64,000 nucleotides of DNA from Bdellovibrionota bacterium (GTDB lineage Bacteria > Bdellovibrionota_C > UBA2361), in NCBI GenBank assembly GCA_044352465.1, contig JBILDU010000001.1, positions 84,211 to 148,210 on the forward strand, given 5' to 3'. Position 1 is the first letter of the stretch. Every line of letters starts with the position of its first letter. Of this stretch, positions 10,045 to 42,255 are shown piece by piece. Under the pieces are notes generated by a model. That model did not search any database and was not told where the DNA came from. It saw only the letters and a program-made list of their open reading frames with translations. The translations under genes were made by a program, and so were the position numbers.

Positions 10045-11058
10045 TCACACACGGTACCTTTTAAAAAACCGAGAAGCGATCTCCGGCTTCTGGCATAGGG
10101 CTGAAGAGAAAGAGAGTAACGCGATGCCGGAAAGACCGAGCACGAGGTTGATATCAGGCGCGGGGAAAACGGCTTGTATTATAATGACCGAGAGGACGGG
10201 GAGGAGGTAGATTATCGAGGTCACCTTTTCAATCGGAATCGCTTGGCGTCTCGCTTCGGCGACAGCTCTTGTCCACACAAAATAGCCAACGCCATCCATG
10301 ACGATGCCAAAGAGGATAGTGATCGCGAGCGAGAGCGGTGGGACCTCGTGAAGGGAGCCCAACTCCGGTAGTGAAAACGGGAGGAGGACGAGCATCCCGG
10401 AGATCGAGGAGAGCACCAGAAACCGAAATTGCTGGTCCGCGCTGATGGTGCTACTGAACGCTGAGTAGAACCCATACGCAGCACCGGCGGCGAGACCCAA
10501 CGCGACCGCGATCCACGGTAGGTCACCGAGCGAGGTCGGTGAGACCGAGAATAGAACGAGAGCAACAGCGACCGCGCCGAGAGCCATGCCGATAAGAAGA
10601 ACGGCTCGCTCAAGCCGCGTGGACGTATTCGCGGGTGGCCCATACTCCTCGCTCATCTCGGAGGGTTGGCGATCCACCGGACTACCGGTGCGCTGAGAGA
10701 AGAGGAGCGCGCTAAAGATAGCAGTAAAGAGCGGCCACGTGTAATTCAGTGCGGCGCTGAGCGCTGCGACCGGGGTATGGCGAAAGCTCCCCCCATAAAA
10801 GAGCCAGTACCACCCGTATCCGAAACTCGAGATGATTCCGATCGGGGCCAGGATCTCACGGGCTGAAACAGAGACCCAACTCCCGGTGATCAGACGCGCA
10901 CCGATCTGGAAGGTAAGAAAGGTGCAGAACGTGCTGAGAAGAAAGAGCCCAGCACCGGAGTGAAACGCCATAATCTTTCCACCGACCGCTCCAAACGCCC
11001 ACAGGAGCACCGTCGTCCAAGCGAGTGCGCGGGGGGAGGCTAGAAAAGTCGATAGCAT
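10045..11058 (-). CDS. DMT-superfamily (EamA-like) transporter
   Basis: 337 aa with about 10 predicted TM helices and two duplicated EamA-like halves. Confidence 0.5.
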   Translation of the reverse strand: MLSTFLASPRALAWTTVLLWAFGAVGGKIMAFHSGAGLFLLSTFCTFLTFQIGARLITGSWVSVSAREILAPIGIISSFGYGWYWLFYGGSFRHTPVAALSAALNYTWPLFTAIFSALLFSQRTGSPVDRQPSEMSEEYGPPANTSTRLERAVLLIGMALGAVAVALVLFSVSPTSLGDLPWIAVALGLAAGAAYGFYSAFSSTISADQQFRFLVLSSISGMLVLLPFSLPELGSLHEVPPLSLAITILFGIVMDGVGYFVWTRAVAEARRQAIPIEKVTSIIYLLPVLSVIIIQAVFPAPDINLVLGLSGIALLSFSSALCQKPEIASRFFKRYRV

Positions 11059-11340
11059 ATACCGAGCTCAGAACGAGGGTGTTCACACGTATCTCGGCCA
11101 GACCGGGATTGCAAGCGTACCTGAGAAGAGGGCAGATCCTTGGAGGTCATCATCGATAATCCACCGCTCAGATACATGCTCGCGGAGCGGTTTTTATCGG
11201 CTCCAGAGTAAGGCATGGCTGTATTTTTTTTTGAAATCGACGTATTTTTTGGGGAATCTCGGTACTCGTTCCGTAATTTTTTAGTAAGAAAAGTGAGTGC
11301 ATACGCCGAGTGCTCCTCCCCCTCACGAAGCAGCTTCAAT

Positions 11341-12417
11341 ATGAGAAAGATATTCGACGAGCGCTTCGAAGAGGGATGTGCCAATGAAGAGGCCAGTGTA
11401 CCGAGCGTTTTTCTTGGGGGACCCTCCACCGCCGCGGTGTTCGCCGGTTTTGGCGCGCTTACGGCGGTCGCTGCACCCCCACCTCAGAGCGTGGCGTTCT
11501 ACGCCCCCGACTTTCAACTCTCGAGTCCCGAGCCGTGGTTCGTGCCGGAGCGATATGAGTCTATCGTCGCCACGCCCCGTGGACCGGTCGCGCCCCTTAC
11601 CAGCGGAACCTCTTTTATCCCCCTTCAGCGTAACGTGGTCGAAGGCGAGGTTGAATCGTTGCTCGCTCTTCTTCGAAGCGGTGAGCTTAGGAAGATAGTC
11701 CCCGTTTGGTTCGAGCGGAGCGAGTGGGTTCCGCACGAATCGGAGAGGGGGGCGTTGTATCGAAACGTTCTCTATCACCGTGGTGATCAGAGCCCGTACG
11801 GCTTTTTTGGAACGAACGAGGGCATGATCGGTCTAACTCCGGAGGTCCTCTTTCACGTCGATAGCGCTGGTGTGATCGGGACGATGGCGCTTGCAGGAAC
11901 CCATCCGGTGCAGGGTAGGTTAACGGCGGCTGACCTGTTATCGGACGAAAAGGAACGGCGAGAGCATCGCCTCGTCGTCGAGTTTATTGAGGGAGCGCTC
12001 TGCGACCTCGGTGATGTCGCGATCGGAGAGACCATGGTGCGGGAGCTTCCGCGGCTACGCCATCTGTATACCCCGATAACGGTCTCTCCGCGTCGCCCAC
12101 CTCAGTTTGAGGAGCTGGTGCGGAGACTCCATCCCACCCCAGCGCTCGGTGCGGTGCCGCGTGAGAGTGGACTACGGCGACTTTTTGAACGTGAGGGGGT
12201 CATTCCGCGAGGTCGTCACGGAGCCCCCTTCGGAGTGGTGTTCCCGAGCGGTGAGATGTTGTGTGTCGTGGCGATTCGAAATCTTCAATGGGATCAAAGC
12301 GGTTCGATGATCGGCGCAGGGTGTGGTATCGTCGCGGGGTCCGACCCAGCGCGAGAGTTTAAAGAGGCTACCGCCAAGATCTCCTCTGTCCGGACGATAT
12401 TAGGGCTTAAAGGGTGA
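11341..12417 (+). CDS. menF: isochorismate synthase
   Basis: Chorismate-binding enzyme motifs (PTPALGAVP, GAGCGIVAGSDPAREFKE). The ORF opens at 11215, but the ATG at 11341 follows an AT-rich promoter-like stretch. Its stop overlaps the menD start (GTGA). Confidence 0.75.
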   Translation: MRKIFDERFEEGCANEEASVPSVFLGGPSTAAVFAGFGALTAVAAPPPQSVAFYAPDFQLSSPEPWFVPERYESIVATPRGPVAPLTSGTSFIPLQRNVVEGEVESLLALLRSGELRKIVPVWFERSEWVPHESERGALYRNVLYHRGDQSPYGFFGTNEGMIGLTPEVLFHVDSAGVIGTMALAGTHPVQGRLTAADLLSDEKERREHRLVVEFIEGALCDLGDVAIGETMVRELPRLRHLYTPITVSPRRPPQFEELVRRLHPTPALGAVPRESGLRRLFEREGVIPRGRHGAPFGVVFPSGEMLCVVAIRNLQWDQSGSMIGAGCGIVAGSDPAREFKEATAKISSVRTILGLKG

Positions 12418-13982
12418 AAAATCGGAGTCTGGCTACTGCAGCGCTGAATCTCCTCGCGAAGCTCGGGGTGATGGAGGTGTGTGTCTGTGCGGGGCGACGG
12501 GATGCCCCCCTCATCCAAATTCTCGAAAAGCAGCGGGGCTTCCGGGTACATTCGTTTTTTGAGGAGCGGAGCGCCGCTTTCTTTGCGCTTGGTTGCGCGA
12601 AGAGAACCGGGCGTCCGGGGGCGATCGTGACCACCTCGGGGACGGCGGTGGCGGAGCTTCTCCCAGCATTCATCGAGGCGCATTATAGCGGCTACTCACT
12701 CATCGCCGTGACGGCCGATCGTCCCCGGAGGCTCCGTGGCACCGGCGCGCCGCAAACGATCGATCAGGTGGGGATCTTTGGCTCGTACGTCGCGCAATGT
12801 ATCGATCGTGAGGTGGGAGAAGAACTCCCCCACGATATCCTCCTCGACCGAGGGTCGCTTCACCTTAACCTTGCATTCGATGAGCCTCTGAACGAAGGGG
12901 AGCCACCAACACTTGATTTCGACGTTGCTGCCGGAGAGTCGCCTCGCTCGCTCGAAACCACTGTGTTGACGGAAAAGCTTACCCGGTTCCTCGCAGGGGG
13001 TACCTCGCCCCTTGTCGTGGTAGGTCCGGTGAAAGCGACTGCGCGGGAAGGGGTGGAGCGGTTCGTTCGTGCGCTCAAAGCGCCGACCCTTGTGGAGGGA
13101 GCATCGGGGCTCCGGGGGGCGCCGTCTCTTCAAGATATAGAACTCGTCGGTGGAAACAACTTCCTCCAAAAACTTCTTTCCGCAGGCACGTTCGACCGAA
13201 TAGTTCGGGTTGGTGGGGTGCCGTCAGCGCGGGTATGGCGCGACCTCGACGAGAAATTTTCCTCTCTCCCGGTGCTGCACATCACCGACACCGTGTTCCC
13301 GGGGCTTGGCCGGGGAGATGTGGTGACGGTCGCGCTCGAAGGATTACCGGCACGACACATGCCGGAGTGGGGAGCGACGAGTGCGAACGTATCTGTACAT
13401 GACCGTAGGGCAGGTGCGGCGTTAGTCGAGTGTATCGAAAGCGAGCCTACCTCGGAGGTAGCGCTCGTGCGGGCGCTCTCGGAGCGGATTGCTGCGGAAG
13501 CCGCGGTGTATCTCGGTAACAGCCTACCGATTCGGGAATGGGATCTCGGTGCGGTACGGGAGAAGATGTGGCGCGCTGTCGAGGCGAATCGGGGTGCAAA
13601 CGGAATCGATGGTCAGCTCTCGACCTTTTTCGGGTGGAGCCTCGAAGCGACGGAGCGTTGGTGTATCCTCGGCGACCTGACAACTCTATATGATCTCAGT
13701 GCGCCGTCGTGTGCGCCCGAGAGCGGTAAGATCCGGATCGTCATCGTCAATAACGGGGGGGGCCAGATCTTTCGGCGAATGTTTTCTGAGAAGCTCTTTA
13801 GAAACGAACACTCCGTTTCGTTTGAAGGGTGGGCCTCGATGTGGGGCTTTGCATACCTCCGGGTTGATGGGGCTCCGGTCCCCGCAGATCTCCCCGATCG
13901 CGTTGTCATCGAAATTCGCCCCGACCAAGCGGCGAGCGATCGGATGTGGGCGCGATACGATTCGCTCTCGATGACTCGCTAG
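12414..13982 (+). CDS. menD: SEPHCHC synthase (ThDP-dependent)
   Basis: 522 aa with N-terminal ThDP-pyrimidine-binding region (GRPGAIVTTSGTAVAELLPAFIEA) and overall MenD architecture. GTG start. Confidence 0.8.
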   Translation: MKNRSLATAALNLLAKLGVMEVCVCAGRRDAPLIQILEKQRGFRVHSFFEERSAAFFALGCAKRTGRPGAIVTTSGTAVAELLPAFIEAHYSGYSLIAVTADRPRRLRGTGAPQTIDQVGIFGSYVAQCIDREVGEELPHDILLDRGSLHLNLAFDEPLNEGEPPTLDFDVAAGESPRSLETTVLTEKLTRFLAGGTSPLVVVGPVKATAREGVERFVRALKAPTLVEGASGLRGAPSLQDIELVGGNNFLQKLLSAGTFDRIVRVGGVPSARVWRDLDEKFSSLPVLHITDTVFPGLGRGDVVTVALEGLPARHMPEWGATSANVSVHDRRAGAALVECIESEPTSEVALVRALSERIAAEAAVYLGNSLPIREWDLGAVREKMWRAVEANRGANGIDGQLSTFFGWSLEATERWCILGDLTTLYDLSAPSCAPESGKIRIVIVNNGGGQIFRRMFSEKLFRNEHSVSFEGWASMWGFAYLRVDGAPVPADLPDRVVIEIRPDQAASDRMWARYDSLSMTR

Positions 13983-14002
13983 ACCGATGATTCCATCCTT
14001 TT

Positions 14003-14253
14003 TGAGGGCCGGATTCTATCTAGCCGAAGCGCCGCAGGTGGTTCAATCGATCTGGAGGGCCGGATTCTATCCGGCCGAGTAGCGCCATTGGTGATTCGAG
14101 CGCGGCTCGACAGAGTCGAGCCCTCCACACGGTTGCGGTGATTCGATCATATTGGAGGGCCGGACTCTGTCCGGCCGAGTAGCGCCACTGGTGATTCGAG
14201 CGCGGCTCGACGGAGTCGAGCCCTCCACAGGCCGCCTGGGGTGATTTGATCAC
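14003..14253 (+). repeat. structured ~100-bp tandem repeat (2.5 copies), REP/MITE-like
   Basis: Unit TGGAGGGCCGGATTCTATCCGGCCGAGTAGCGCCATTGGTGATTCGAGCGCGGCTCGACAGAGTCGAGCCCTCCACA. Each unit has two internal hairpins (GCCGGA...TCCGGC and GGCTCGAC...GTCGAGCC) flanked by GGAGGG/CCCTCC. Full copies at 14053-14152 and 14153-14253, plus a partial copy at 14003-14052. Confidence 0.85.
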
Positions 14254-15499: not shown

Positions 15500-15871
15500 T
15501 TAATCAGCGGACACAGCTTTTGCATTTTTGAATGCCTGCTCACATCGTACGGTACATCTGAGAAAAATCGCTTCGAAATATGATCCTTCCTCAATCAGGC
15601 AATCCCTTAACTGAGCGCACCAGTATCCACACTGAACGCAGCTCAGGATGTCTTTCTGCTTTTCGCAGAGCGCGACCGCACCTTCCGCATTCGCCCTTGC
15701 GAGTGCACATTGGTCGCTTCCCCTAGAAGCGAAATCGGGATCTGCCTGCTCCAAAATTACTGTGAGCTCTGCGAGCTCGGAATCAAGCTGCTCAATCGGA
15801 GATGCGAGCACGCTTCCAGGGATACTTGAGACGAGGCAGAGGATTGTCGTAAAAATGTAAGCAAAACGCAT
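15500..15871 (-). CDS. small secreted cysteine-rich protein
   Basis: Signal peptide MRFAYIFTTILCLVSSIPGSVLA. The mature ~100 aa has 7 Cys, including CVQCGYWC. The local GC is clearly lower than in the surroundings. Confidence 0.5.
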   Translation of the reverse strand: MRFAYIFTTILCLVSSIPGSVLASPIEQLDSELAELTVILEQADPDFASRGSDQCALARANAEGAVALCEKQKDILSCVQCGYWCAQLRDCLIEEGSYFEAIFLRCTVRCEQAFKNAKAVSAD

Positions 15872-16660
15872 ATATAAACCCCACATGGTACCGTTAGCCG
15901 AAGCTGATTAAGACCTTAGCAACTGGTCAGCTTTCAGAATAAAGTTATGCGAGGCAAGACCGCTGCTGTGCGCTAATGGTGCGCGATTTTGCTTAGTGGT
16001 TTCCGCTTGGTCTGGGTCAGCTACGTCAGAGCACCTCTTTTCCCGCGTGGCTGGGCTAGTGTGGATGTATTACGAATCGGCTTATTGGAGGATGTACCAT
16101 CTCATCGGTACCGTGCAGCAGGCCCATTTCGATTACCCAGAATAAGTGATGAGCAAAAGCGGCAGCCTTATGAGATGCTATGGCGTTCCTCGCCATCGAG
16201 CTTTCATTAAAACTATTTGTAGGGAGGCGGGACAATTTTGTCCCAACCACGCGGTCGTCGGAGTCTGGTCGACCGCGAACAGATGTAACGCCTCCGCGGG
16301 GGCGTGGACGACCGGGAGCGGGGAGCGCTAAGCAGTTACAGGGGCAAATAATTGCGCGCGGGCGAAGACGTAGCGCGGAGCGAACCGAACCGTATTCAGG
16401 GAACCTCCCTTATTGACTCAGCGTTGTTCGCTTTGCTCCTATTCCCCAACGGTAAGGAGTTTACCGTTGAGGAGTCACGCCACGTGGGGCGAAGGAGTAC
16501 GCGTCGAGCTGATACTCAAGGTCAGATGTGAATTGGACAGGGGGCTCGGGGAAGGTCCCTCGGCCGATTCGATACGCGAGCCGCTTTGCTTTTGCAGTTG
16601 CCCGGCTCTCCCTGGCCAGGCTAATGATTCTTTCAGAAGATGAAGAAGTTTCCGAGAGAA

Positions 16661-18748
16661 TCACCAGAGCCCCTCCAACGGAGCTCCAGTCAAGCGATTC
16701 ACGACGCGAGGGCGGATCTTGAGCTTTGACTCAATCGAGCTTAGGAGGTGCCCAACAGGTGTCTGTGCCCAAGAGTCAACGGGACGTTGAATCACCGCGA
16801 CGACGGGGGTCACTGCATCAAATCGAGCCGCCTCGGCGTGACGATAGAGCTGGGTGCCCACGATGTTGTCTCCGAGAGAATGATGCTCCTTGTAGTTTTT
16901 ACTGACGAGGGTGTCGAGGGTACGTTTCACCTCGATTCCGAGGGTCTCCCCGGCCTTACTGCGAGCGATAATATCGTACTCAAAGCCATGCCTAATCGGT
17001 GAGCTGAGGCCGATAATCGTGTATTCACTCTTACTCAGGGCGACAGCCGTCGCCGCTTCGATGGGGAAGCCGGAGAAATGTTGAGTATCGTCTCCTTTCG
17101 CCCGTGCGCGGAGAACGACGAGGCTGTTGTCGAGAAGCTTTTCGATCCCTTTCACGTTGAGGCGGTCAAGATGTACGAGGTTTTCCAGGAAAAGAATCAC
17201 CTTCTCATCGCCAGCTGTATCGTATTGACGTGGTGCAACAAGAGCGATCTCACGTAGCTTTGCGATCGGATACCGTTCCGAACTAAGTTCGTTGAGGGCA
17301 TGCGCAAGGCGGCGAACGTGCCCCTCAATATCCGGGCATCGAGCCTGCCGGGCGAATGTGTGAAGAATCGATTGGATCTCGGGAGCGCGTATACCGTCTG
17401 TGCCTTCGAGCCCCTCCATTCCGTGGCGCACAGCCGCGCGTATTCCCTGATTCGGCTCACGGGTGAGCTCCATCGAGATCTGGAGAGAACGGCCGAGTAT
17501 CTTCTTGTATCCGGGCTCGGACTGTGGAATCGGTACCAAGGCTCCTTCGGCTGCACGGCGAATGACCTCGGCACCTTCCGCGGTGGTAACGAGGAATTGC
17601 TCGATGGGGACATCCCAGCGTGCGAGGGTGGCGAGACGTTTTAGGTGAGAGATTTTTTCGGGTCCACGTTTCAGTGGTTCCGCAAGCCGGTGTTCGATCC
17701 ATGTGGATGGATACATGAGCAATGTAAGCTCGACAACCGTCTCGTGAAGTTCGTTCATGTCACTAGCCGTGACGGTACATTTTTCGGGGATGTTGCACGC
17801 AAGATTGCGAGTTACCGTTGAGAGCCGTGGAAGGAGCTCCCTCCCGAGCTGGAGCTCCTGAGCGGCGACGGATGTGAGATATCCTCGCTCGGTGAGCTTC
17901 TCTAGCCACGACTCGGTTGTGGTAAGTCCGTATGCACGGAGGCGATCCATTTGTCCTAGGATAGCGGTGATTGAAGCGAAGGACGCTTCGGTAGCTTCGC
18001 TGAGATGTCGACACCCTTGCCGGAGTTCATTCAGGGTCTTGAGGTGGTCTCGCCCCTCGGGCCCAACAAAGTCCTGAACGAGTGGTACGATGAGTCGGTC
18101 AGCGCTGTTTTTCTCGACGTCCTCGAGGAGCTCAGAGAACTGCAGGTGTTCCTCAAGTGTCGTAAGCTCGAGACGTATAAATTGCTCGCACATACCGAGG
18201 AGCTCGGGGCCGGAGTCGCGAATGGGCTGAACGATTTGCTCACGGAGCGCAGTGACTTCAGAGCGAACCTCGGCCGCGGCAGGTCCAGATACCGCCTGAA
18301 ACGGTTGAGCCGCGATCAACTCGGGTTGTGGCGACTCGGGGCTCGATTCACGCGGGGTGAGGTTTTCATTTGAGAGGGGATTCGAGGGGAAGGCATCGAA
18401 GATCAGTTGGGTGATAACCCGGTATTCCGCGGTTCGGTCACTCGTACGAAAGGTATCCGGTAGTATCCCAGGATTTCGATTCGCGCGACGCTCGAAGATA
18501 TGAAGCTTGTGTTCTACCTCGGCGCGGAATGTAGCGCTGCCAAGCTCCGTATCGCCTCTCGCAGCCTCAAAAGCGGCGTAGACCGGGTCCGATCTCAGGA
18601 ATCGCTCGGTTTGTGCAAGGCCAACGAGAGGTGTCCGGCCCCGGAGTTCCTGATTCGGCGCCCTGGCGAGACGTTCAACGGCGTCGTACGCCGCTTCGCG
18701 CTGAGCCGGCGAAAGGCGTAGATCGATCGCTGTCTCGCTTTTGATCAT
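16661..18748 (-). CDS. large hypothetical protein with C-terminal PD-(D/E)xK nuclease-like domain
   Basis: 695 aa, mostly helical. The C-terminus carries E (PIEAATAVAL), D (FEYDIIA) and ExK (GIEVKR) with canonical restriction-endonuclease-fold spacing. No N-terminal motif was recognised. Confidence 0.55.
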   Translation of the reverse strand: MIKSETAIDLRLSPAQREAAYDAVERLARAPNQELRGRTPLVGLAQTERFLRSDPVYAAFEAARGDTELGSATFRAEVEHKLHIFERRANRNPGILPDTFRTSDRTAEYRVITQLIFDAFPSNPLSNENLTPRESSPESPQPELIAAQPFQAVSGPAAAEVRSEVTALREQIVQPIRDSGPELLGMCEQFIRLELTTLEEHLQFSELLEDVEKNSADRLIVPLVQDFVGPEGRDHLKTLNELRQGCRHLSEATEASFASITAILGQMDRLRAYGLTTTESWLEKLTERGYLTSVAAQELQLGRELLPRLSTVTRNLACNIPEKCTVTASDMNELHETVVELTLLMYPSTWIEHRLAEPLKRGPEKISHLKRLATLARWDVPIEQFLVTTAEGAEVIRRAAEGALVPIPQSEPGYKKILGRSLQISMELTREPNQGIRAAVRHGMEGLEGTDGIRAPEIQSILHTFARQARCPDIEGHVRRLAHALNELSSERYPIAKLREIALVAPRQYDTAGDEKVILFLENLVHLDRLNVKGIEKLLDNSLVVLRARAKGDDTQHFSGFPIEAATAVALSKSEYTIIGLSSPIRHGFEYDIIARSKAGETLGIEVKRTLDTLVSKNYKEHHSLGDNIVGTQLYRHAEAARFDAVTPVVAVIQRPVDSWAQTPVGHLLSSIESKLKIRPRVVNRLTGAPLEGLW

Positions 18749-19926: not shown

Positions 19927-20370
19927 GCCGGCCTTTACGGGCTGGTTGTGAGTCTGAGTCGGTGTCTGATGGCCTGAGCACTTTCCAAGCTTCAACCCAC
20001 GTGAGTTTTGGGAACTTGAATTCGGTCTGGTATGACACAAAGGGTGAGACGGCGAAGTACTCTCACTCGCCGATTCGCCTTCAGTTGAGTCGGATTAAGA
20101 GCTGTTATCTAAACGAGTAGCGCAAAGTACCCAACATCGTGTACTCGAGAGCCGACCTGGTGAAGCTCGCGGGGGCGTACGGGCATCCCGGGGCCGATCG
20201 GGATCAGACCGTAGTTTGTGGGGCTGATGGGTCAATGGCCTCTCCGTGCTTTGGCAATAAAGTCTATATCTATCAGTGGGTTGGGGCTGGTGGAGCTTTC
20301 GTCTCGGCCTAGCAGGTGAGTTCTAGTAGCGTTTTTGGTTAGAATCAGTCCCCCGGAGGAAGAGGTAGGT

Positions 20371-21183
20371 ATGTGGGAAACGATCAAAAAGTACGAAGAT
20401 ATCAAGTTCGAGAAGACGAGCGACGGAATCGCGAAGATTACGATTAACCGTCCCGAGCGGCGAAATGCTTTTCGCCCTCAGACCGTGCTTGAGATGCAAG
20501 ATGCATTTAATCTCGCGCGTGACGACGATCAGATCGGTGTCGTCATTTTAACCGGGGAGGGGCCCGAGGCTTTTTGCTCCGGTGGCGATCAAAAGATCCG
20601 TGGTCACGCGGGCTATATCGATTCTCAAGGGGTACCTCGGCTGAACGTGCTCGATCTGCAAAAGCAGATTCGTGGGCTCCCGAAGCCCGTCGTGGCGATG
20701 GTCGCGGGGTACGCGATAGGCGGTGGCCATGTTCTCCACGTGGTGTGCGATCTCACGATCGCTGCGGATAATGCCAAGTTCGGGCAGACCGGACCGAAGG
20801 TCGGCTCGTTCGATGGTGGGCTTGGCAGCTCCTACCTCGCGCGGATCGTCGGTCAAAAGAAAGCCCGGGAGATCTGGTTTTTGTGTCGGCAGTACGATGC
20901 GCAGCAAGCCCGTGAGATGGGGCTGGTGAACTGGGTGGTGCCGCTTGCTGAGCTCGAGACGGAGACCTTAAAAGTATGCCGGGAGATGCTTGAGCTTTCG
21001 CCTTTGGCGCTCCGGTGTCTGAAGGCGTCGCTTAACGCCGATTGCGACGGGCAGATGGGGCTTCTCGACCTCGCCGGCAACGCGACCCTTCTCTACTACA
21101 TGACTGAGGAAGCCAAGGAGGGAAAGCAGGCGTTCGTTGAGAAGCGGAAGCCTAACTTTAAAAAATTTCCGCGGCTGCCGTAA
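20371..21183 (+). CDS. menB: 1,4-dihydroxy-2-naphthoyl-CoA synthase
   Basis: Crotonase fold with MenB-specific motifs ([26 protein letters not shown]). GGAGG RBS before the ATG at 20371; the ORF track starts at a TTG at 20335. Confidence 0.88.
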
Positions 21184-21186
21184 CCG

Positions 21187-22089
21187 ATGTCCCTGGCCCC
21201 TTGGATAGCGGCTGCGCGGCCGAAGACCCTCACTGCGGCGCTGGTGCCGGTTGTGGCGGGTTCGGCGCTGGGAGCACGGTTGTCGTTGGCAACTGAGTTT
21301 GCGTGGTTCGTCTCGCTGGCTGCGCTCATCAGCGCAACCGCGATACAGGTTGGTACGAATCTCTTCAACGACGTCCTCGATTTCGAGAAAGGTGCCGACA
21401 CCGCGGCGCGAGTGGGGCCGACGCGGATTACCCAATCGGGGGGTGCCTCTCCTGAGCGGGTCTATCGGGTAGCGATCGGGACGTTCCTTGTTGCGATCCT
21501 CTTCGGTGCTTACTTGGTCTGGCACGGCGGTGCGCCGATTCTTATCATCGGGCTCCTTTCTCTTCTTTTTGGATATGCCTACACGGGCGGACCCTACCCG
21601 TTAGCGTATCGCGGTCTCGGTGATCTTTTCGTGCTGATATTTTTTGGGATTGTGGCGGTCACGGGGATGGTGTTTCTCCACACCGGGTTCTGGCCGTTTG
21701 CGGGATTCGTGGCAGGGCTTCAGATCGGCTCACTCGCCGTCGTCCTCATCGCGATTAATAATCTGCGGGACCGTGAAACCGATAGTCGTGTTGATAAGCG
21801 AACGCTTGCGGTTATCTTGGGCGAGCGCGGGGCAAAGATCGAGATAGTGGCGCTCTTAATCGCTCCATTTTTGTTAGGGCTTTATTGGGTTGAGACCCCT
21901 TTTAGCTGGGCCGCGGTGCTGCCACTTGTCCTCTTGCCGTTCGCAGTACGGGTAGCGCGTGAGATCTGGGCGATGAAGCCGAGCGGAGAGCTCAATCGGT
22001 ATCTCGGTCGGTGCGCGTTTGTTCACTTGGGGTTCGGTGCTCTGCTGACGATCGGCTTTCTATTGGGGGCGGTGCCTCTTGGGAACTGA
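21187..22089 (+). CDS. menA: 1,4-dihydroxy-2-naphthoate polyprenyltransferase
   Basis: UbiA-family membrane protein with NDVLDFEKGADT and NNLRDRETDSRVDKRTLAV motifs. Confidence 0.85.
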   Translation: MSLAPWIAAARPKTLTAALVPVVAGSALGARLSLATEFAWFVSLAALISATAIQVGTNLFNDVLDFEKGADTAARVGPTRITQSGGASPERVYRVAIGTFLVAILFGAYLVWHGGAPILIIGLLSLLFGYAYTGGPYPLAYRGLGDLFVLIFFGIVAVTGMVFLHTGFWPFAGFVAGLQIGSLAVVLIAINNLRDRETDSRVDKRTLAVILGERGAKIEIVALLIAPFLLGLYWVETPFSWAAVLPLVLLPFAVRVAREIWAMKPSGELNRYLGRCAFVHLGFGALLTIGFLLGAVPLGN

Positions 22090-23218
22090 CTTCGGGGCTG
22101 TGGAGTTTCGGCTCGGGTGGGGCGATTTCAAGCTCCTTCTCGATCCCCGTTTTGGTGCGGAGAGGCGGGGTGATTTTGAAGCGTTGCTCCGCCCGGTTGC
22201 CCCACCAGGCGGTGGTATCTGGGTAGCCTCATCGGGGACAACTCGAAAAGAGGGCACGGGGTATCGGTTCATTGCACTTACCGAGGCTGCGCTGGTGACC
22301 TCTGCTCAGGCGGTAAATGCCCATCTTGCAGCGACAAAAGAAGATATCTTTGTGTCGTGCCTGCCCGATTTTCATGTTGGTGGTCTCGGGCTCCAGGTGC
22401 GGGCCGCTCTCCTCGGGGCACGATTTGTTAGGAGTGCCGGCAACGCTCGTCCGTGGAGCGCTCTTGAATTTGCGAGAGATGTTGAAGCCAATCGGGGAAC
22501 GATCCTCTCGCTGGTACCGACTCAGGTAGTTGACCTGGTAAGGGCGGGTATCGCGGCGCCGAGCTGTGTGCGTGTCGTGGTCGTTGGCGGCGGCGCGCTG
22601 TCCTTTCGTGAGTACCAGGAGGGGCGGGCGCTCGGGTGGCCGCTGCTACCGAGCTACGGATGCACTGAGTGTAGCTCGCAGATCGCGACCGCATCACTGG
22701 AGAGCCTTCAAACTCATCGGGGTAGCACGCTGCCGCCGCTCAAGCTTCTCTCCCATATCGAGGCGCGAGAGGAGGAGGGTGCTCTGCTCATTCGAAGCAG
22801 GGCTTTGTTCTCGTGTGCGGCGAGCCTGATGGACGATTCGGTCACCGTGGAGCCACTCGCGCCAGGTGCCTGGTTTCAGACCTCTGATCGCGTCGCCATC
22901 GAGGGAGACACGATAGCACCGCTCGGGCGTGTCGATGATCTTATCAAGATCGGCGGGGAGGGGGTGAATCTGCACGAGCTTTCCCTCCTCGTTCGTGATA
23001 TCCGAGAGGTGATATCGATGCAGGGCGATGTTCTCTTAAGGGCGATACCAGACGAACGGTTTGGTAACGTCCTGTCGCTGCGCGTGACTAATGCCGCCCT
23101 TGGAGAGGTCATTCGCGAGAGATTTAACGAACAGGTTCTCCCTTTTGCGCAGATACGCTCGGTAGAGCTCGTAGAAGTGATTGAGCGAACGGCCCTGGGA
23201 AAGCTGAAACGAGGATAA
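22079..23218 (+). CDS. menE: o-succinylbenzoate-CoA ligase (short adenylate-forming enzyme)
   Basis: AMP-binding motifs SSGTTRKEG, SYGCTE and IKIGGEGVNLHELS. Positioned after menB-menA. Confidence 0.65.
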   Translation: MGTDFGAVEFRLGWGDFKLLLDPRFGAERRGDFEALLRPVAPPGGGIWVASSGTTRKEGTGYRFIALTEAALVTSAQAVNAHLAATKEDIFVSCLPDFHVGGLGLQVRAALLGARFVRSAGNARPWSALEFARDVEANRGTILSLVPTQVVDLVRAGIAAPSCVRVVVVGGGALSFREYQEGRALGWPLLPSYGCTECSSQIATASLESLQTHRGSTLPPLKLLSHIEAREEEGALLIRSRALFSCAASLMDDSVTVEPLAPGAWFQTSDRVAIEGDTIAPLGRVDDLIKIGGEGVNLHELSLLVRDIREVISMQGDVLLRAIPDERFGNVLSLRVTNAALGEVIRERFNEQVLPFAQIRSVELVEVIERTALGKLKRG

Positions 23219-23558: not shown

Positions 23559-25145
23559 TTACGGTGTGATCTCGATATAGCGAGTTGTAAGCGCTACCTC
23601 AGATCCCCTCGATGTGCGGGAAAGACATACGATCCCCCGTAAGCCATCAGTGAACTCCCGGCTTTCGCAGTCGCAACTCAGCCGGGTCGTCGCACCACCA
23701 AGTTTACAGCCGTAATCAGAGACATAGAGCGCTGCGTTCCAAAAATGCTCCCACGAAGGTGGTACCGCTTCATCACAGATGCGGACGAGTACAGAGTCAG
23801 GGCGTGGAGTGAGCGTTTCAGGGAGCGGGAGTGTTCGCAGGGCAGCGATGGTCTCGTGAGCAAACGGTGGAGTAAAATGGGCAGGCGGCTGCCACGCCAA
23901 GAGTAGGGGGGTGCGATAGAAGACGATCACGCCGACCATGAGGAACGTAGCAAGTATACTTCCATGGCGGAGGGTCTTGTATTCGCTTTTTAGGAGGGCG
24001 TGAACGAGAACAGCGAGAAGAAGAGCGCCACAGATATACAGTCCAAAAAGACGGTGGCCTCTGATGTAGGTGATCGATAGGAGAGGGATCGTCAGCGCTG
24101 CACCAGCAAGGACAACGACCATGAGATAAAATCGTTTGTGTTCCTCTAGAATTTCGCGTGAGCGTCGAGCGTCTGCTCCGCAGAGAGTTGATATCGTCAC
24201 GGCCGCGAAGGCCGCCAGTGCAAGCCACAGCTCAAGGCTACCTGCTTCGCTTAGGGTCTCAGAACTAAAGTAAGATGGTGACCACTCAAAGATCGCCGGT
24301 ACCTCTTTGATTCGCGCGAGGATAGTTTCCCTCCATTCTCCAAAAAGTGTTCCCGATGGAGTTACAAGGCTCTCCGTGCGCCCTTCAAAGAGAGTTTGAT
24401 CGAAGCGGATACCGGGATGGAGAAGCTTTAAAATAAAGCCGCTGAAGATCGCCGATCCAAGGAAAATAGTTGTGAATCGGAGTCGGTAGCCTCGAGTATC
24501 ATTACACCAAAGGCGATAACTACCGATAAGGGAGAGTGCTATGACCGCAAGAGGACGAGAGACGGTATAGGTCTCGTAGGAGAGAGCGATGAGGAGTGGA
24601 AAGATGAAGAGAAGCAGGGTGGCTTTGCGGATGTTTTGCCGTCGAAGCGCTGAGTCAAGTGCAGCGAGGCTCCAGAGGAGGAAGGTAAACCAAGCTGCTG
24701 ACGTGATGGTGAGCTTCGATTCATAGAGGTACGAGATAAGCTGAGTGCTGAAGCCGACCGTGGTAAGCAGGAGCATGGTCGGGAAGAAGGTGAAGCTGAG
24801 AGTGCGTGCGAGGCCCCACAGTCCCAAAAGGGTGAGAGCAAAAAAGGCAACGCCGATAATTCGGTGAAGGACGTAGGTGTCGATGGAGTGGCGCAGAAGC
24901 TTCGTGGGAACGACGTAGAGCAGGCTTAACGAGCGTTGATCGGTAACGTTTGAGGTAGGGCCCTCGAGCCCTTTGAGTGGATTCGGGTCGCACAACGCTC
25001 CCAGGCGGGGGGCGAAGTTATACGCGAGGCCGTACTGTTCTTGGAACATGAAGTTTGGGTTCACACTCATCCGGAGGCGAGAGCCAACAAGGAGGGTAAT
25101 CGCGACAATGAAGAGCAAAAGACCGACGTGAGTAGTGCGTTTCAT
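23559..25145 (-). CDS. polytopic membrane protein, possibly a GT-C-like glycosyltransferase
   Basis: About 528 aa from the internal ATG at 25145 (MKRTTHVGLLLFIV...). Many TM helices and a Cys-rich extracytoplasmic C-terminus. The function is inferred only from architecture. Confidence 0.35.
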   Translation of the reverse strand: MKRTTHVGLLLFIVAITLLVGSRLRMSVNPNFMFQEQYGLAYNFAPRLGALCDPNPLKGLEGPTSNVTDQRSLSLLYVVPTKLLRHSIDTYVLHRIIGVAFFALTLLGLWGLARTLSFTFFPTMLLLTTVGFSTQLISYLYESKLTITSAAWFTFLLWSLAALDSALRRQNIRKATLLLFIFPLLIALSYETYTVSRPLAVIALSLIGSYRLWCNDTRGYRLRFTTIFLGSAIFSGFILKLLHPGIRFDQTLFEGRTESLVTPSGTLFGEWRETILARIKEVPAIFEWSPSYFSSETLSEAGSLELWLALAAFAAVTISTLCGADARRSREILEEHKRFYLMVVVLAGAALTIPLLSITYIRGHRLFGLYICGALLLAVLVHALLKSEYKTLRHGSILATFLMVGVIVFYRTPLLLAWQPPAHFTPPFAHETIAALRTLPLPETLTPRPDSVLVRICDEAVPPSWEHFWNAALYVSDYGCKLGGATTRLSCDCESREFTDGLRGIVCLSRTSRGSEVALTTRYIEITP

Positions 25146-25488
25146 GTGAGGGATCACCTTATCAGGGGGCACGTGGAGTAAGGGGGCGTGACGCCGTATA
25201 ATGTAGGAGATATTCTCTGTAATATCGAGCCATGACAAGGGGTTATGGTATGTTGCGCCGTTAGTTCACGAGGCCATAACAGGGATAGAGAGGGGGAGAA
25301 GCTCATCCAGAGTGGCTCTTTGGCTCCCCACGCGCTTTCACATCTTCATACGGGTAGTTCACATCGATTTTAAGGTTGTAGGGGTGGTGCACTCACTTTC
25401 CGGCTTCTAGGGAAGCTCGAAGGCGAGTGTACCACTCGCCATTGTGGCGAACTGGACACTGATAGATCTCTCGAAAAGGAGCAACGTC

Positions 25489-26177: not shown

Positions 26178-26330
26178 GTGGCGCTCGTCGGCCGGACAGA
26201 GTCCGGCCCTCCAATGCTTTTGAATCACCGCAATCGTGTGGAGGGCTCGACTCTGTCGAGCCGCGCTTGAATCACCTGTGGTGCTCGTCGGCTGGATAGA
26301 GTCCGGCCCGCTAATGATTGCTCGCATCAT
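26178..26330 (-). repeat. inverted-orientation copy (~1.5 units) of the 100-bp structured repeat seen at 14003-14253
   Basis: The reverse complement of 26178-26330 aligns with the repeat unit at 14053-14253. Examples: GGCCGGACAGAGTCCGGCCCTCCAAT and GGAGGGCTCGACTCTGTCGAGCCGCGCTTGAATCACC. Confidence 0.8.
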
Positions 26331-26357: not shown

Positions 26358-29300
26358 TCAATACGAATAACTTTGCCCCTCCTGGGCTCGTCCCGCGATG
26401 AGGTCGTCGATCGATTCGAGGGCAAAGGTGTTGATGTAGATGACCTCACCGATCCTTTCTAAGATTCCGGTCGCGAGGAGGCACGAGCTTGAAAGAACGA
26501 TGCGACGATACTTTTCAAAAACGTCAGGGCGGATAATAAGGTTCGTAATCCCCGTTTCATCTTCAAGGGTAATAAACACTACCCCTTTCGCGGTGCCGGG
26601 GCGTTGACGGATAATCGCGACCCCCGCAACCGATACGGTGCGCTCACGGGGGAGGCGAGTGAGTTTCTTGAGCGCCCCTGCGGTAAAGACGTTTCTTTTC
26701 GTAAGCTCGTGACGAATAAATCCGATCGGGTGCCCTTTTAAGGAAAGTCCACTTGCGGCGTAGTCGGCGAACATCTCTTGTTGCGCTGTGGTGGTAGGGA
26801 GAAACGCTTTCGCCGGTGTGTTGTTTTGGTAAGGCAGGGTCGCTCTATCAACGGGAAGCGGGATCTCGGGCAGCGCTTTGATGGCCCAGAGCGCCTCTCG
26901 ACGGTTAAGCCCGAACGAGCTGAACGCATCACCCCGGGCGAGTGTCTGTAGCGTTGAGCGATAGGGGCGCTCCGAAGATTCGCTATAGTCGCTCGTTACG
27001 GCGAGCCAAAACTCTTCGATGGTTTTTGACGCTGGATGACGCTCATAAGAGCTCACCAGAAGCTCAGCCTCTCTATGAGGAAGTCCTTTAAAAAGTCTTA
27101 AACCCAATCGCACTGCGGGACGTTTCGAGGTTTCATCTTCCTCGAGCCGCGCGTCCCACCCGCTATAGGCGATATCCGCCTCTCGCACACACACCCCGTG
27201 CTCTTGGGCGTCACGCACTATTTGGGCTGGGGCATAAAAGCCCATCGGTTGGCTATTAAGGAGCGCTGCGGCGAATTCGGCAGGATAGTGATGTTTAATC
27301 CACGCCGAGGCGTAGACGAGATGAGCGAACGATGCCGCGTGTGATTCCGGAAAGCCGTATTCGCTAAACCCCTTAATCTGCTCCATACACGTTTCAGCGA
27401 ACTCAACCGAGTAGCCGTTTCGGGTCATGCCGGCTACGATCTTTTGTTTAAACGTTGTAATCACCTCTTTATTGCGTTTCCACGCCGCCATCGCGCGGCG
27501 AAGCTTCTCCGCCTCACCGGGTGAAAAGTCGGCGAGCACGATCGCAAGCCGCATCGCTTGTTCTTGAAAAAGGGGGACGCCGAGAGTTTTTCCTAAGATC
27601 GCTTTTACCTGTTCGTCGGGGAAGTGAACCTTCTCTTTGCCGCTCCGGCGCTTTAAATACGGATGCACCATATTGCCGTGAATGGGTCCGGGGCGGACGA
27701 TCGCGACCTCGATAACAAGGTCATAAAAACACCGCGGACGAAGCCGCGGAAGCATCGACATCTGGGCGCGCGACTCGATCTGAAAGACGCCAACGGTGTC
27801 GGCGCGGCAGATCATATCGTAAACCGATGAGTCGTTTTGAGGGATCGAATGAAGTTGAAGGGAAGCTTTATTCTCTTCTTGTCGCCGGTTATTGACCAAC
27901 TCAAGCGCTTTGCGGATACAGGTCAGCATCCCAAGCGCTAGAACGTCGATTTTTAACATTCCGAGGGCGTCGATATCGTCTTTATCCCATTCGATGATAG
28001 TGCGATCCGCCATGCCGGAGTTTCGGATCGGTACCGTTTCTGAGAGCGGCTCTTGAGAGATGATAAAGCCCCCCACATGTTGTGAGAGATGGCGGGGAAA
28101 CCCTAAAAGCTCGTGACTAAGCCGGATCGCGTTTTGAATCGTTGTATCGTCTGGGTCTAGTCCAAGCGCTTTAAGATCCTCCGCCGCGATAATACAATCG
28201 GTCCACCGGTGAACGAGTTTTGCAAGTTTATCGACGATCTCGAGCGAAAGGCCTAACGCTTTGCCGACTTCGCGGATAGCGCTTCGATACCGATAGGTGA
28301 TGACCGCACAGGTAAGCCCCGCCCGATTTCGCCCGTATTTTGAGTATATATATTGAATCACCTCTTCTCTACGCTCGTGCTCAAAGTCGATATCGATATC
28401 GGGTGGTTCGTTCCGTTCTTTGCTGACAAAGCGAGCGAAGAGAAGGTCGATGGTCGCGGGGTCGACCGAGGTTATCCCTAAACAGAAACAAACTACTGAG
28501 TTCGCCGCGGCTCCGCGGCCCTGGCACAAGATCCCCCGACTTCGGGCAAAGCGGACGATATCGTGGCAGGTAAGGAAATACTTTTCGTACTGAAGGTCCT
28601 TAATAAGGTGGAGCTCCTCGCGGATCGCTTGCTCGACTTTTGGAGGAATGCCGTTTGGGTATCGCTCCTCCGCCCCCCCCCAGGTCTTTGTGGTAAGGTA
28701 TGTATGGACATCGTGGCCCGCTGGGCAGATCTCGGTCGGGTATTCGTAGCGCAGCTCATCGAGCGAAAACCCGGCGGTCATCTCAGTAAGTTCGAGCGTT
28801 CTATGGAGAGCGGGGCGATCGTCTCTAAAAAGGCGCTCCATTTCTTCGACCGGTTTTAGATACCGCTCCCCGTTTGGAAAAAGTTTAAACCCGGCGGTGT
28901 GAACGGTGCAGCCTGCGCGGATAGCGGTGAGGACGTCGTGAAGGGGGCGGCGTGCTCGGGAATGGTAGTAGGGATCGTTCGTAGCGATAAGTGGAAGTGT
29001 GAGCGTCGTCGCCGTAGCGCGGGTCATCTCGAGCGCGCGGGGACAAAAAAAGTCATAATTTTTCGTGAGCGCCATCGACCACACGGCGCGATCGGTTGCT
29101 GCATTCAGAAGCGCACCGACGATCGGAACGATGTCGAGCGGTGGAGCGCTGCTATCGCGTACGGTGGGGAGAGGCGGGGGGATCACGATGACGGCGAGAC
29201 CTTGATGGTAGTTTAAAAAGTCGGTCGTGGTGAGTAAGCACCGGGCACCGGGAAGCCGTGTTTTTCCGAGTGTTAACAGGGAGCAGAGGTTCCCATATCC

Positions 29301-29672
29301 TTTGCGGTTCAATGGGAATACGGCGAGATCAAGGGTTTGAAATTGCGATTCGATGGGGGCCTCGAGATCGACCGTTACGGGGGGGGCTTCGGCTGGGATA
29401 AGGGTAAGCCGGGCCCCAGGGCGGTACGGCATGCCGATGTCACGTGCCGCGGTATGGGCGCGTACGATTCCAGCGAGGGTTGTGTGATCGGCGAGGCCGA
29501 GCGCGGCATAGCCCAATTCTGCAGCGGTGGCGACGTATTCTTCCGGGTGGCTCGCACCACGTAGGAAAGAGAAGTTCGTCGTTATCAGAAACTCGGCGTA
29601 GCTCGGTCGTTTCGGCGCGCGCCGCACGGGGAGGATCGGAGGTTTTATCTTATCGTAGGGCTTATCGGGCAT
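26358..29672 (-). CDS. dnaE2: error-prone DNA polymerase III alpha subunit
   Basis: 1104 aa. N-terminal PHP domain begins PSYAEFLITTNFSFLRGASHPEE, typical of DnaE2/ImuC. Sits downstream of imuA-imuB. Confidence 0.88.
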   Translation of the reverse strand: MPDKPYDKIKPPILPVRRAPKRPSYAEFLITTNFSFLRGASHPEEYVATAAELGYAALGLADHTTLAGIVRAHTAARDIGMPYRPGARLTLIPAEAPPVTVDLEAPIESQFQTLDLAVFPLNRKGYGNLCSLLTLGKTRLPGARCLLTTTDFLNYHQGLAVIVIPPPLPTVRDSSAPPLDIVPIVGALLNAATDRAVWSMALTKNYDFFCPRALEMTRATATTLTLPLIATNDPYYHSRARRPLHDVLTAIRAGCTVHTAGFKLFPNGERYLKPVEEMERLFRDDRPALHRTLELTEMTAGFSLDELRYEYPTEICPAGHDVHTYLTTKTWGGAEERYPNGIPPKVEQAIREELHLIKDLQYEKYFLTCHDIVRFARSRGILCQGRGAAANSVVCFCLGITSVDPATIDLLFARFVSKERNEPPDIDIDFEHERREEVIQYIYSKYGRNRAGLTCAVITYRYRSAIREVGKALGLSLEIVDKLAKLVHRWTDCIIAAEDLKALGLDPDDTTIQNAIRLSHELLGFPRHLSQHVGGFIISQEPLSETVPIRNSGMADRTIIEWDKDDIDALGMLKIDVLALGMLTCIRKALELVNNRRQEENKASLQLHSIPQNDSSVYDMICRADTVGVFQIESRAQMSMLPRLRPRCFYDLVIEVAIVRPGPIHGNMVHPYLKRRSGKEKVHFPDEQVKAILGKTLGVPLFQEQAMRLAIVLADFSPGEAEKLRRAMAAWKRNKEVITTFKQKIVAGMTRNGYSVEFAETCMEQIKGFSEYGFPESHAASFAHLVYASAWIKHHYPAEFAAALLNSQPMGFYAPAQIVRDAQEHGVCVREADIAYSGWDARLEEDETSKRPAVRLGLRLFKGLPHREAELLVSSYERHPASKTIEEFWLAVTSDYSESSERPYRSTLQTLARGDAFSSFGLNRREALWAIKALPEIPLPVDRATLPYQNNTPAKAFLPTTTAQQEMFADYAASGLSLKGHPIGFIRHELTKRNVFTAGALKKLTRLPRERTVSVAGVAIIRQRPGTAKGVVFITLEDETGITNLIIRPDVFEKYRRIVLSSSCLLATGILERIGEVIYINTFALESIDDLIAGRAQEGQSYSY

Positions 29673-29707
29673 AGGTAGTTAGCAGAGAATAGAGTGAGAA
29701 AAAATTC

Positions 29708-31363: not shown

Positions 31364-32246
31364 CCCACGTTGTTTTACGAGGAGCGGATCCTTTGTATTT
31401 TAAAAGCTCGATAATCCACCGAGGGTGGGAAGTCGTCGAAACCTCGGGGCGAATAAGCCATCGTGTTGTAAAAGCAGTGGCGGTGTCTTGCGGGCGTCCA
31501 CCTTGGCGTATGGGACGATAAAAAAGACCGATCGTATCTCCGGTGCGAGAAGCTAAGAGAAAACGTCGGCTGAGGGCGAATGAGATCTTTGGAAGCGATG
31601 CGATGACTACTCCAACAGCCGGAGAACGCAGTGCTGTATCGATAGTCCAAAAAGTTGCTTTCTGATTCGGCGGATCGAGAAAAAGACATCGCGAAAGGCT
31701 GCCGCTTACAGTTGAAGCGGGTTCTCGCTCGGAAAGAGCAGTAATTTGAGGCGGTATGCTATGAGCGGGTGCGTGAAAAATATGATCGAGGAAATGAGGG
31801 GTAGGCCAGGCGCTTTTACCGATCCAGGCAGCCAGCTTTGAGGTGGAGGGTGTTTCCTTCAAACCGAACCGATGAACTATCGCTCCGATCGCCGAGACTA
31901 TGGCGCTCGGAGCTTCTCTCAATCCGCTCTCAACGAAGAGCTCGTGAGCTGTGCCCGGGAGGAACCCCCCTTCGGGTAAGAGATCATCGAGTCCTGTCAC
32001 CTTGAACGGCTGGATAGCATTCGGGCGTCGGGCGCGGCCGATGCGGTTTCCGTATCCCGCTTTATTTTCGGCGAGCCAGAGAAGCCCGCGCGTACAGAGA
32101 GCCTCGATCGCAGCCGCGTTGTTTGTTGCGCTTTCGCCAACTTCTAAAGAAGGGATCGCTGGTAATAATCTTTGTGCCTCGGTTGGCATATCGTGCCGTC
32201 CCGCTAACCACTCGTTTTTATTGCTTGATATCTTTTTCTGCGTCAT
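31239..32246 (-). CDS. imuA: ImuA, RecA/SulA-like inducible mutagenesis protein
   Basis: Motif GLDDLLPEGGFLPGTAHELF matches the ImuA signature LDxxLPGGGLxxGxLHE. First gene of the cassette. Confidence 0.7.
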   Translation of the reverse strand: MTQKKISSNKNEWLAGRHDMPTEAQRLLPAIPSLEVGESATNNAAAIEALCTRGLLWLAENKAGYGNRIGRARRPNAIQPFKVTGLDDLLPEGGFLPGTAHELFVESGLREAPSAIVSAIGAIVHRFGLKETPSTSKLAAWIGKSAWPTPHFLDHIFHAPAHSIPPQITALSEREPASTVSGSLSRCLFLDPPNQKATFWTIDTALRSPAVGVVIASLPKISFALSRRFLLASRTGDTIGLFYRPIRQGGRPQDTATAFTTRWLIRPEVSTTSHPRWIIELLKYKGSAPRKTTWGVELCGSDDDQNVPLHLSPSVADRRSTSSTSGESARDRRRA

Positions 32247-39532: not shown

Positions 39533-39954
39533 TTGTTTGGTAGCGAGGCGGCGAACTCCTCCTTGCCGAGCTGTCCGGTTGGATGAGCTTGATATCGCGC
39601 AGCGCGCGCATTCTATTCTCTGTAGCAGCCCTCGGAAGCTCAACGATAGCCCGTGAGGGGAAAGGGTTCCTATGTGACACCCTGCTTGCGTGTCGATAGC
39701 CGATAACAAAAATCAGCTTTCGTCGTATGGTTTCTCTTCATAGCCATTAAAGTTTGTATGTTCGCGGCGAAGGGGGGTCTGGGGCGGTGACTGGAATCCG
39801 TATCTCAAGCTCTACGGGGTCACGGGTGAATAAAGACCGTACTCTGGTCGGCTATGGGCGCATCAACGCCCCGTCTCTCTTAGGTATTAGCGAGGAATCC
39901 CTTTGTCCTCGTTTTCTGGAAAATAACTCTCCGGTGTGCTAAGGTCGGCGCAGA

Positions 39955-40127: not shown

Positions 40128-42254
<2,127 letters not shown>

Positions 42255-42255
<1 letters not shown>

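Follow-up and report, generated by a model that had tools for sequence, protein, structure and literature searches.

The gene and its locus

The window, a stretch of 64,000 nucleotides from a contig of a Bdellovibrionota bacterium, carries in order menF-menD, an LD-carboxypeptidase gene, a 128-aa ORF, the gene studied here (Table 1), DUF1653-GNAT and menB-menA-menE. The same stretch is found on a JGI metagenome contig. A previous reading of the sequence alone (the sequence-only reading) had rightly placed the gene within the men cluster; menF-menD lies at 11215-13982 and menB-menA-menE at 20335-23218. It also described an adjoining low-GC patch. A mild patch is indeed present (15500-15999, GC 0.494), but it goes with the separate 128-aa ORF, ~775 bp downstream of the stop codon of the gene. 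The gene itself has a GC content of 0.571, a GC3 of 0.606 and a codon usage JSD of 0.038, all within the range of the housekeeping genes of the window. Neither tRNAs nor convincing flanking direct or inverted repeats were found around the segment that interrupts the men genes. With this native composition and no mobility signature, the insertion in the men cluster proposed earlier is a description of gene order and not a demonstrated mobile element.

Scans for promoters and terminators around the gene gave nothing better than shuffled sequences. Three consecutive plus-strand ORFs in three frames (15989-16643) were considered as a frameshifted pseudogene lying downstream, a candidate that was rejected as none of them has a family match. 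The window holds two other ORFs of similar length and no paralog of the gene. The LexA box of the Bdellovibrio type is TTACN3GTAA; this consensus, which may not be that of the host, occurs at chance frequency and is absent upstream of the gene. No operator common to the gene and the nearby imuB-dnaE2 cassette was found, and the gene also lacks the AT-rich repeat that precedes the imuA-like gene.

The sequence-only reading had placed a 695-aa protein at 16661-18748. Its ORF runs over 695 codons from ATG to stop, its coordinates were confirmed codon by codon, and the minus strand, which that reading omitted, can now be added. Given the base composition, a run of 695 codons free of stops has a probability of ~1e-12. 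The protein aligns at full length with P0002 and about 15 further relatives of ~690 aa, and tblastn against independent loci covers residues ~5-27 through ~684-691. As homologs align over this span, the full 695-aa reading is correct. The public annotation gives another picture. Identical DNA is found on a 620-kb JGI metagenome contig, where the gene call (P0001) begins at M267 and is 429 aa long, with two small ORFs annotated on the opposite strand over the part of the gene before M267. Taken at face value, these calls would mean that only the 429-aa product is made, the 266 codons before M267 being non-coding or part of the opposite-strand ORFs. Such a reading has almost no probability: the upstream part is conserved at the protein level in ~12 distant relatives, with E34, G37, D54 and N92 invariant, the tblastn alignments begin at residues 5-27, GC3 and codon usage are equal on either side of M267, an identical 125-aa N-terminal fragment (P0009) was called as a protein in another sample, and the antisense ORFs have no family matches. 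As far as sequence comparison goes, the conservation data already contradict it. The public annotation, which truncates the protein to 429 aa and adds two spurious antisense ORFs, is wrong. Neither transmembrane nor hydrophobic segments nor a signal-like N-terminus are present in the protein or in the N-termini of its relatives. The gene encodes a genuine cytoplasmic protein of 695 aa.

Table 1. Coordinates in the window of the gene and of the parts of its product.
Feature	Positions	Strand	Remarks
Complete gene, 695 codons and stop	16661..18748	minus	ORF list and translation; stop codon 16661-16663
N-terminal conserved module, residues 1-125	18374..18748	minus	Alignment A5, 12 members
Variable acidic P/S/E/Q/A-rich linker, residues 126-164, pI 4.4	18257..18373	minus	Gap-rich, poorly aligned columns in alignment A3; pLDDT <50
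All-alpha helical-repeat region, residues 165-504	17237..18256	minus	
Two-helix module, residues 505-555, FLxNLAxL...GVxG, invariant G534	17084..17236	minus	Conserved in all 17-18 members
PD-(D/E)xK nuclease domain, residues 556-695, pI 9.0	16664..17083	minus	
Codon of E564 (helix 1; invariant G560 precedes)	17057..17059	minus	Invariant in 18/18 members; aligns with the glutamate of Hjc G-x3-E
Codon of D592 (strand 2, motif YDIIA)	16973..16975	minus	Invariant; aligns with D of PDIIA in ST1444 Hjc
Codons of E606-V607-K608 (strand 3, motif IEVK)	16925..16933	minus	E606 and K608 invariant; align with Hjc IEVK
Codon of K617 (helix after strand 3)	16898..16900	minus	Invariant
Codon of Q633 (start of second core helix)	16850..16852	minus	Invariant

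A small family of Bdellovibrionota-type genomes

A word-indexed homology search returned two proteins only, also when started from an 18-member profile or from P0013, and the family came to light only when 1.84 billion representative proteins were searched exhaustively with HMMER. It consists of 27 clusters among these 1.84 billion proteins, 13 of them below 1e-30 and most of 665-704 aa. Members of the 18-member alignment (A3) share 19-36% identity with the protein of the window and 20-40% with each other.

A hand-made and strict degenerate DNA pattern for the catalytic block, used to find loci, gave eleven matches. Five stretches came from GTDB species representatives, four of which were confirmed as homologs by tblastn, all four in Bdellovibrionota, Bdellovibrionales or 'Deltaproteobacteria' MAGs, and the same pattern yielded one further tblastn-confirmed homolog in the metagenome collection. 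Six of the eleven matches (L010-L012 and L014-L016) have no tblastn similarity to the protein and are probably due to chance. The family has so far been seen only in Bdellovibrionota-type genomes, a distribution that rests on the four reference genomes retrieved with this strict pattern, and no relatives were found on phage, plasmid or IMG/VR viral contigs. The protein of the window is the founding member of this small, previously uncharacterised family.

The carboxyl-terminal nuclease domain

The motifs PIEAATAVAL (E564), GFEYDIIA (D592) and GIEVKR (E606 and K608), on which the nuclease had originally been called, were all confirmed and lie in the last 132 residues. Taken by itself, the pattern E-x20-35-D-x8-20-E-x-K turns up in 54% of shuffles of the protein and in 5/35 other proteins of the window, falling to 0.7% of shuffles and 0/35 window proteins when hydrophobic context is added. 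Since the bare spacing is unspecific, the motif call rises above chance only through the conservation and structure evidence obtained later. Only nine columns are invariant in the 18-member alignment, namely G534, G560, E564, A565, D592, E606, K608, K617 and Q633.

The AlphaFold2 model of residues 505-695, built from 17 sequences (mean pLDDT 93.1, pTM 0.89), has in its nuclease part the succession helix (with E564), strand, strand (D592), strand (E606 and K608), helix, helix (Q633), strand, helix, strand. A full-length model from 2 sequences has these elements in the same succession in its nuclease domain. The core displays the alpha-beta-beta-beta-alpha-beta fold of the superfamily with a mixed central sheet, and the family-conserved residues follow its scheme, with E on helix 1, D at strand 2 and (D/E)xK on strand 3. 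Structure prediction, which could have spoken against the motif call, places E564, D592, E606 and K608 on canonical elements of a high-confidence model. The assignment of the C-terminal ~140 residues to a PD-(D/E)xK domain stands, and the residues named in the sequence-only reading are catalytic candidates that are family-invariant, on canonical elements and aligned with those of Hjc. These results show an intact PD-(D/E)xK domain of Hjc/NucS-like kind in the last ~140 residues. From the topology and the homology to Hjc, the four catalytic candidates would cluster in three dimensions, and the domain is very probably an active nuclease.

The amino-terminal ~550 residues

No motif could be assigned in the first ~550 residues from the sequence alone, and database searches agree with this: there is no Pfam or NCBIfam match at E<=10 and nothing meaningful in PHROGs, PADLOC or PDB. 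The module of residues 1-125 carries the motifs [AS]PNQELRGR (30-38) and FERLAxRNP (85-93) and the invariant residues E34, G37, D54 and N92, and is predicted to be helical with low confidence from a 2-sequence alignment. It has no relatives in Pfam, NCBIfam or PDB sequences. In the 2-sequence full-length model the N-terminal 162 residues have pLDDT <50 and the helical region reaches moderate values only. For residues 165-504, the only matches are to designed helical repeats and to solenoids of the importin/ATM-like kind. A PADLOC match to CARF3 (E 6.7e-4, residues 211-291) was rejected, as it is found in 1/18 members only and lies within an all-helical stretch. The helices of the two-helix module (507-529 and 535-550) have pLDDT >90 in the domain model, and this module precedes the nuclease in every member, including the few with different N-termini.

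The description of this region as a variable N-terminal domain does not hold, because it is family-specific and conserved across the family. It is therefore not the swappable variable sensor implied by the analogy with Shedu.

Genomic contexts and evolutionary rate

Eight independent contexts were compared: that of the window (with its JGI copy) and those of L001, L013, L008, L006, L007, L009 and L017. The L001 gene is preceded by genes for SH3_3, M48 peptidase and CHASE2 cyclase proteins and followed by DUF2817, H+-PPase and gidB genes. DUF2817 and then H+-PPase genes are found downstream also in L013, and a DUF2817 gene in L008. The other neighbours are an FtsX permease and a GH5 hydrolase (L006), a homogentisate-dioxygenase-like gene (L007), an ABC ATPase, a Ski2-like helicase and a phosphoglucomutase (L009), and PAS, PASTA and DUF2298 genes (L017). 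The DUF2817 neighbour common to three contexts points to vertical inheritance. No gene common to the window and the Bdellovibrionota homolog loci was found. Where neighbours could be mapped, the family gene is monocistronic and usually convergent with the next gene.

None of the eight contexts has recognisable defence, integrase or transposase genes, and the unannotated neighbours of the gene in the window have no PADLOC matches. This tally of residence in defence islands, advised when the nuclease was first proposed to act in defence, thus comes out at zero. Homologs embedded in housekeeping operons were to count against that proposal. In spirit this is what is found, for the homologs lie among housekeeping genes, but the gene is monocistronic and outside such operons. 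The gene is resident, monocistronic, chromosomal and vertically inherited, without a mobile island.

The rate of divergence was compared with that of two neighbouring genes in the three loci sharing synteny (L001, L013 and L008). Between L001 and L013, H+-PPase has 95% identity, DUF2817 60% and the family protein 28%, the latter being better conserved in the nuclease domain (40%) than in the N-terminal and helical parts (~25%). In the comparisons with L008, the family protein has 33-41% identity versus 61-64% for DUF2817. With 28% against 60% and 95% under conserved synteny, this looks like a resident gene that evolves fast. The fast divergence could instead reflect relaxed constraint on the scaffold. 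The gene keeps its place and its catalytic residues while the remainder changes far faster than the neighbours do, and no other feature speaks for a conflict-type role over one in core repair.

Proposed mechanism and role

We hold, at about even confidence, that the best overall explanation is a resident, gated nuclease, with a weak preference for a lineage-specific role in genetic conflict. In the mechanism that we propose, the C-terminal domain would cut DNA by Mg2+-dependent hydrolysis, with E564, D592 and E606-x-K608, together with K617 and Q633, as the putative metal-binding and catalytic set. The nuclease would be permanently fused to the two-helix module (FLxNLAxL..GVxG) and to a helical-repeat scaffold of ~340 aa, with the conserved N-terminal 'ELRGR' module of 125 aa attached through a flexible acidic linker. 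The most likely task of the helical part is to recognise a partner, which may be a protein or a DNA structure, and to gate the nuclease domain, which is basic. Such a sensor or gate role is suggested by analogy with the N-terminal and middle domains of other large single-chain PD-(D/E)xK enzymes. More speculatively, the acidic linker might serve as a tether, or mimic DNA on the basic domain.

The divergence of the protein, faster than that of its syntenic neighbours, gives a weak preference to a role in genetic conflict over one in core repair. A lineage-specific function in surveillance or destruction of foreign DNA is weakly favoured on these grounds, at somewhat less than even chance. In its most specific form, which we consider tentative, the protein would be a phylum-restricted, chromosomally fixed, single-chain immune or surveillance nuclease of predatory bacteria, not recognised before, in which a new sensor made of the 'ELRGR' module and the helical solenoid gates an Hjc-like cutter. 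It would be engaged in an arms race at a stable locus, with no movement from one defence island to another.

The protein could instead be a housekeeping nuclease for structure-specific repair or recombination, a Bdellovibrionota analogue of NucS, Hjc or FAN1 whose scaffold sets the cutter on branched or damaged DNA. Its motifs are closest to those of Hjc and UPF0102 and its fold is near that of NucS, all contexts are made of ordinary chromosomal genes with partly conserved synteny, its composition is native, and there is no toxin-immunity or defence partner. Against this stand the rarity of the family, with 27 clusters in 1.84e9 proteins, and a divergence (28% versus 60% and 95% for the neighbours) that would be unusual for a core repair factor. 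Moreover, the protein reaches the threshold of none of the FAN1/VRR_NUC, NucS and Hjc models, and multi-domain repair nucleases align with the catalytic core only. We regard a repair function as possible, though a good deal short of probable.

Less likely still is a mobile Shedu-type single-gene nuclease, anti-phage or abortive-infection, that came in with an insertion in the men cluster. The defence reading loses ground as the PADLOC matches are isolated and weak and the eight contexts lack defence or mobile genes, and the likeness to Shedu does so as no family member matches DUF4263 and the N-terminus is conserved. The much faster evolution of the protein relative to its neighbours leaves room for a conflict-type role of the non-mobile kind.

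A predation-linked enzyme specific to Bdellovibrionota, delivered to prey or acting on its nucleic acids, appears very improbable. The family is so far confined to a phylum of predatory bacteria, although the MAG organisms that carry it are not necessarily predators, and evolves fast. Bdellovibrio uses several nucleases in predation (e.g., PMC7925074, PMC3593177), and the prey-directed ones known are described as secreted or as having potential export sequences. A prey-directed role is disfavoured because no such signal, neither a signal peptide nor a hydrophobic segment, is present in the protein or at the N-terminus of any member.

Significance

The protein defines a new PD-(D/E)xK nuclease family with a previously undescribed N-terminal architecture of ~550 aa, a region for which no relative could be detected in Pfam, NCBIfam, PHROGs, PADLOC or PDB. 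Uncharacterised PD-(D/E)xK fusions are common. Should the nuclease be active and under the control of its N-terminal region, this would be a new domain architecture in the superfamily. It is unusual for a nuclease to combine a stable position with very fast divergence, and the phylum is predatory and poorly studied. The gene is a candidate for an immune or conflict function under vertical inheritance, and genes of this class are by design overlooked in defence screens that rely on islands. A lineage-specific repair enzyme would be of modest, specialist interest only. The 18-member alignment could seed a new family model.

Comparison with known systems

Direct family assignment was attempted with the protein and with family profiles against Pfam, NCBIfam, PHROGs, PADLOC and PDB, and was abandoned as nothing reached threshold. 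The sequence motifs are closest to those of the archaeal Holliday-junction resolvase Hjc (PF01870; PDB 1gef, 2wcw and 2eo0, the latter ST1444) and UPF0102/YraN (PDB 3fov). HMMER and hhalign comparisons with ST1444 and A. fulgidus Hjc put G-x3-E, D and E-x-K in register (hhalign probability 74.5%). However, the Hjc family model is matched by 2/18 members only, with E 0.13, and PDB profile matches have E 0.08-0.24. Hjc is also a small stand-alone protein, unlike the multi-domain 695-aa protein described here.

XisH (FdxN-element excision controlling factor, PDB 2okf), NucS/EndoMS (2vld and 5gke) and AF1548 (1y88) match at the fold level only, with 10-16% identity and no sequence-family match to any of them. 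NucS carries a distinct N-terminal DNA-binding domain. The N-terminal region of the present protein is in contrast all-helical, and it shows neither the two-domain organisation of NucS/EndoMS nor a match to its family model. The Can2/Card1 CARF nucleases match the protein only via the nuclease core, and their N-terminal Rossmann-like CARF domain has no counterpart in it.

The protein shares with Shedu the general idea of an N-terminal region and a C-terminal PD-(D/E)xK nuclease in one polypeptide. It differs from Shedu/SduA (DUF4263, PF14082) in that it has no Pfam match at E<=10, that DUF4263 is found in 0/18 members at E<=1, and that the N-terminus of the family is conserved, without association to defence genes and known from a single phylum. 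No SduA/Shedu model appears in the PADLOC output for the family. Models of the NERD, Cap4 and Mrr types are matched by 0/18 members at E<=1 in Pfam and PADLOC, and a 'Mrr-like' ZorD match in PADLOC (E 0.055) is limited to the protein of the window. The comparison with DUF4263, NERD and Cap4 suggested in the sequence-only reading thus gave no match in any member, and that with Hjc stayed below threshold with the motifs in register.

Among multi-domain repair nucleases, none aligns beyond the catalytic core of the protein. FAN1 has the architecture SAP-TPR-VRR_NUC (PMC4201288, PMC4103454), and the present protein does not have a VRR_NUC domain preceded by SAP and TPR. Upx is a single-protein PD-(D/E)xK anti-phage nuclease with demonstrated defence activity (PDB 9wuf; PMC13099982). 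It differs by its 1212-aa chain and by an N-terminal domain that holds a second, atypical nuclease core; the present protein has no sign of a second catalytic core, and no sequence similarity between the two was found. The N-terminal and middle domains of Upx buttress and regulate its C-terminal PD-(D/E)xK core (PMC13099982), which makes it the closest published analogy for the gating that may operate in the protein described here.

Gene calls and intervals around the nuclease gene

The public JGI annotation of the same DNA, on a 620-kb metagenome contig, starts the gene of the 695-aa PD-(D/E)xK protein at the internal M267, yielding a truncated 429-aa product; the stretch concerned is window 17948-18748. 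Both antisense ORFs that JGI calls over the conserved N-terminal coding region look spurious. Downstream of the nuclease gene, the 128-aa ORF has an atypical composition (GC 0.494, codon-usage JSD 0.18) and gives neither a family nor a PADLOC match. The gap of ~775 bp that separates the two (window 15887-16660) contains no JGI-called gene, and the three short plus-strand ORFs found there, one per frame, are all without a family match.

The interval between menD and the LD-carboxypeptidase gene carries ~2.5 tandem copies of a GC-rich, hairpin-containing unit of ~100 nt (window 13985-14229). A further copy, 89% identical and in the opposite orientation, is found at window 26179-26309 directly downstream of the dnaE2-like gene. 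The unit appears to be a dispersed intergenic repeat of the host genome, similar to REP or MITE elements.

Features discussed in the text, with coordinates in the window or in the loci L001 and L009, which carry homologs of the nuclease gene
Feature	Location	Strand	Basis or remark
337-aa ORF	window 10045-11058	-	no Pfam or PADLOC match
128-aa ORF downstream of nuclease gene	window 15500-15886	-	composition and family search
JGI-called ORF antisense to conserved N-terminal coding region	window 18005-18373	+	
JGI-called ORF antisense to conserved N-terminal coding region	window 18500-18721	+	
559-aa ORF	window 23559-25238	-	no Pfam or PADLOC match
Three-ORF group including dnaE2-like gene	window 26358-32246	-	Pfam domains on the same DNA and ORF order
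TPP riboswitch (Rfam RF00059)	window 39950-40058	+	59.4 bits
thiC	window 40324-42255	+	downstream of TPP riboswitch
1308-aa ORF	window 49087-53013	+	no Pfam match
499-aa ORF	window 53029-54528	+	no Pfam match
697-aa ORF	window 54634-56727	-	no Pfam match
WipA_Phos-family gene	L001 2893-4320	+	Pfam family
DEAD-box/Ski2-like (DSHCT) helicase gene	L009 858-3124	+	adjoins nuclease-family gene

Neighbours of the homologs

At L001, on a contig of 43% GC, a WipA_Phos-family gene lies ~6 kb from the gene of P0002, a full-length homolog with 37% identity to the nuclease protein. The Pfam family takes its name from WipA, a Legionella effector phosphatase. The helicase gene of L009 apparently falls into two ORFs, of 270 aa and 484 aa, that abut each other, perhaps through a frameshift or because of an error in the assembly.

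Other genes of the window

The host organism seems to encode many unassigned proteins, as the five large ORFs listed in the table as lacking a Pfam match illustrate. The TPP riboswitch ahead of thiC is an ordinary arrangement. The dnaE2-like gene encodes a 1104-aa DNA polymerase III alpha homolog, as assigned from Pfam domains. Two ORFs stand ahead of it: one of 335 aa without a family match, then one of 551 aa whose match to impB/mucB/samB (IMS) is weak. The AT-rich repeat ATAGAATAATAATAGAAT lies directly upstream of the 335-aa ORF. The order of the 335-aa ORF, the 551-aa ORF and the dnaE2-like gene matches that of the imuA-imuB-dnaE2 SOS mutagenesis cassette.
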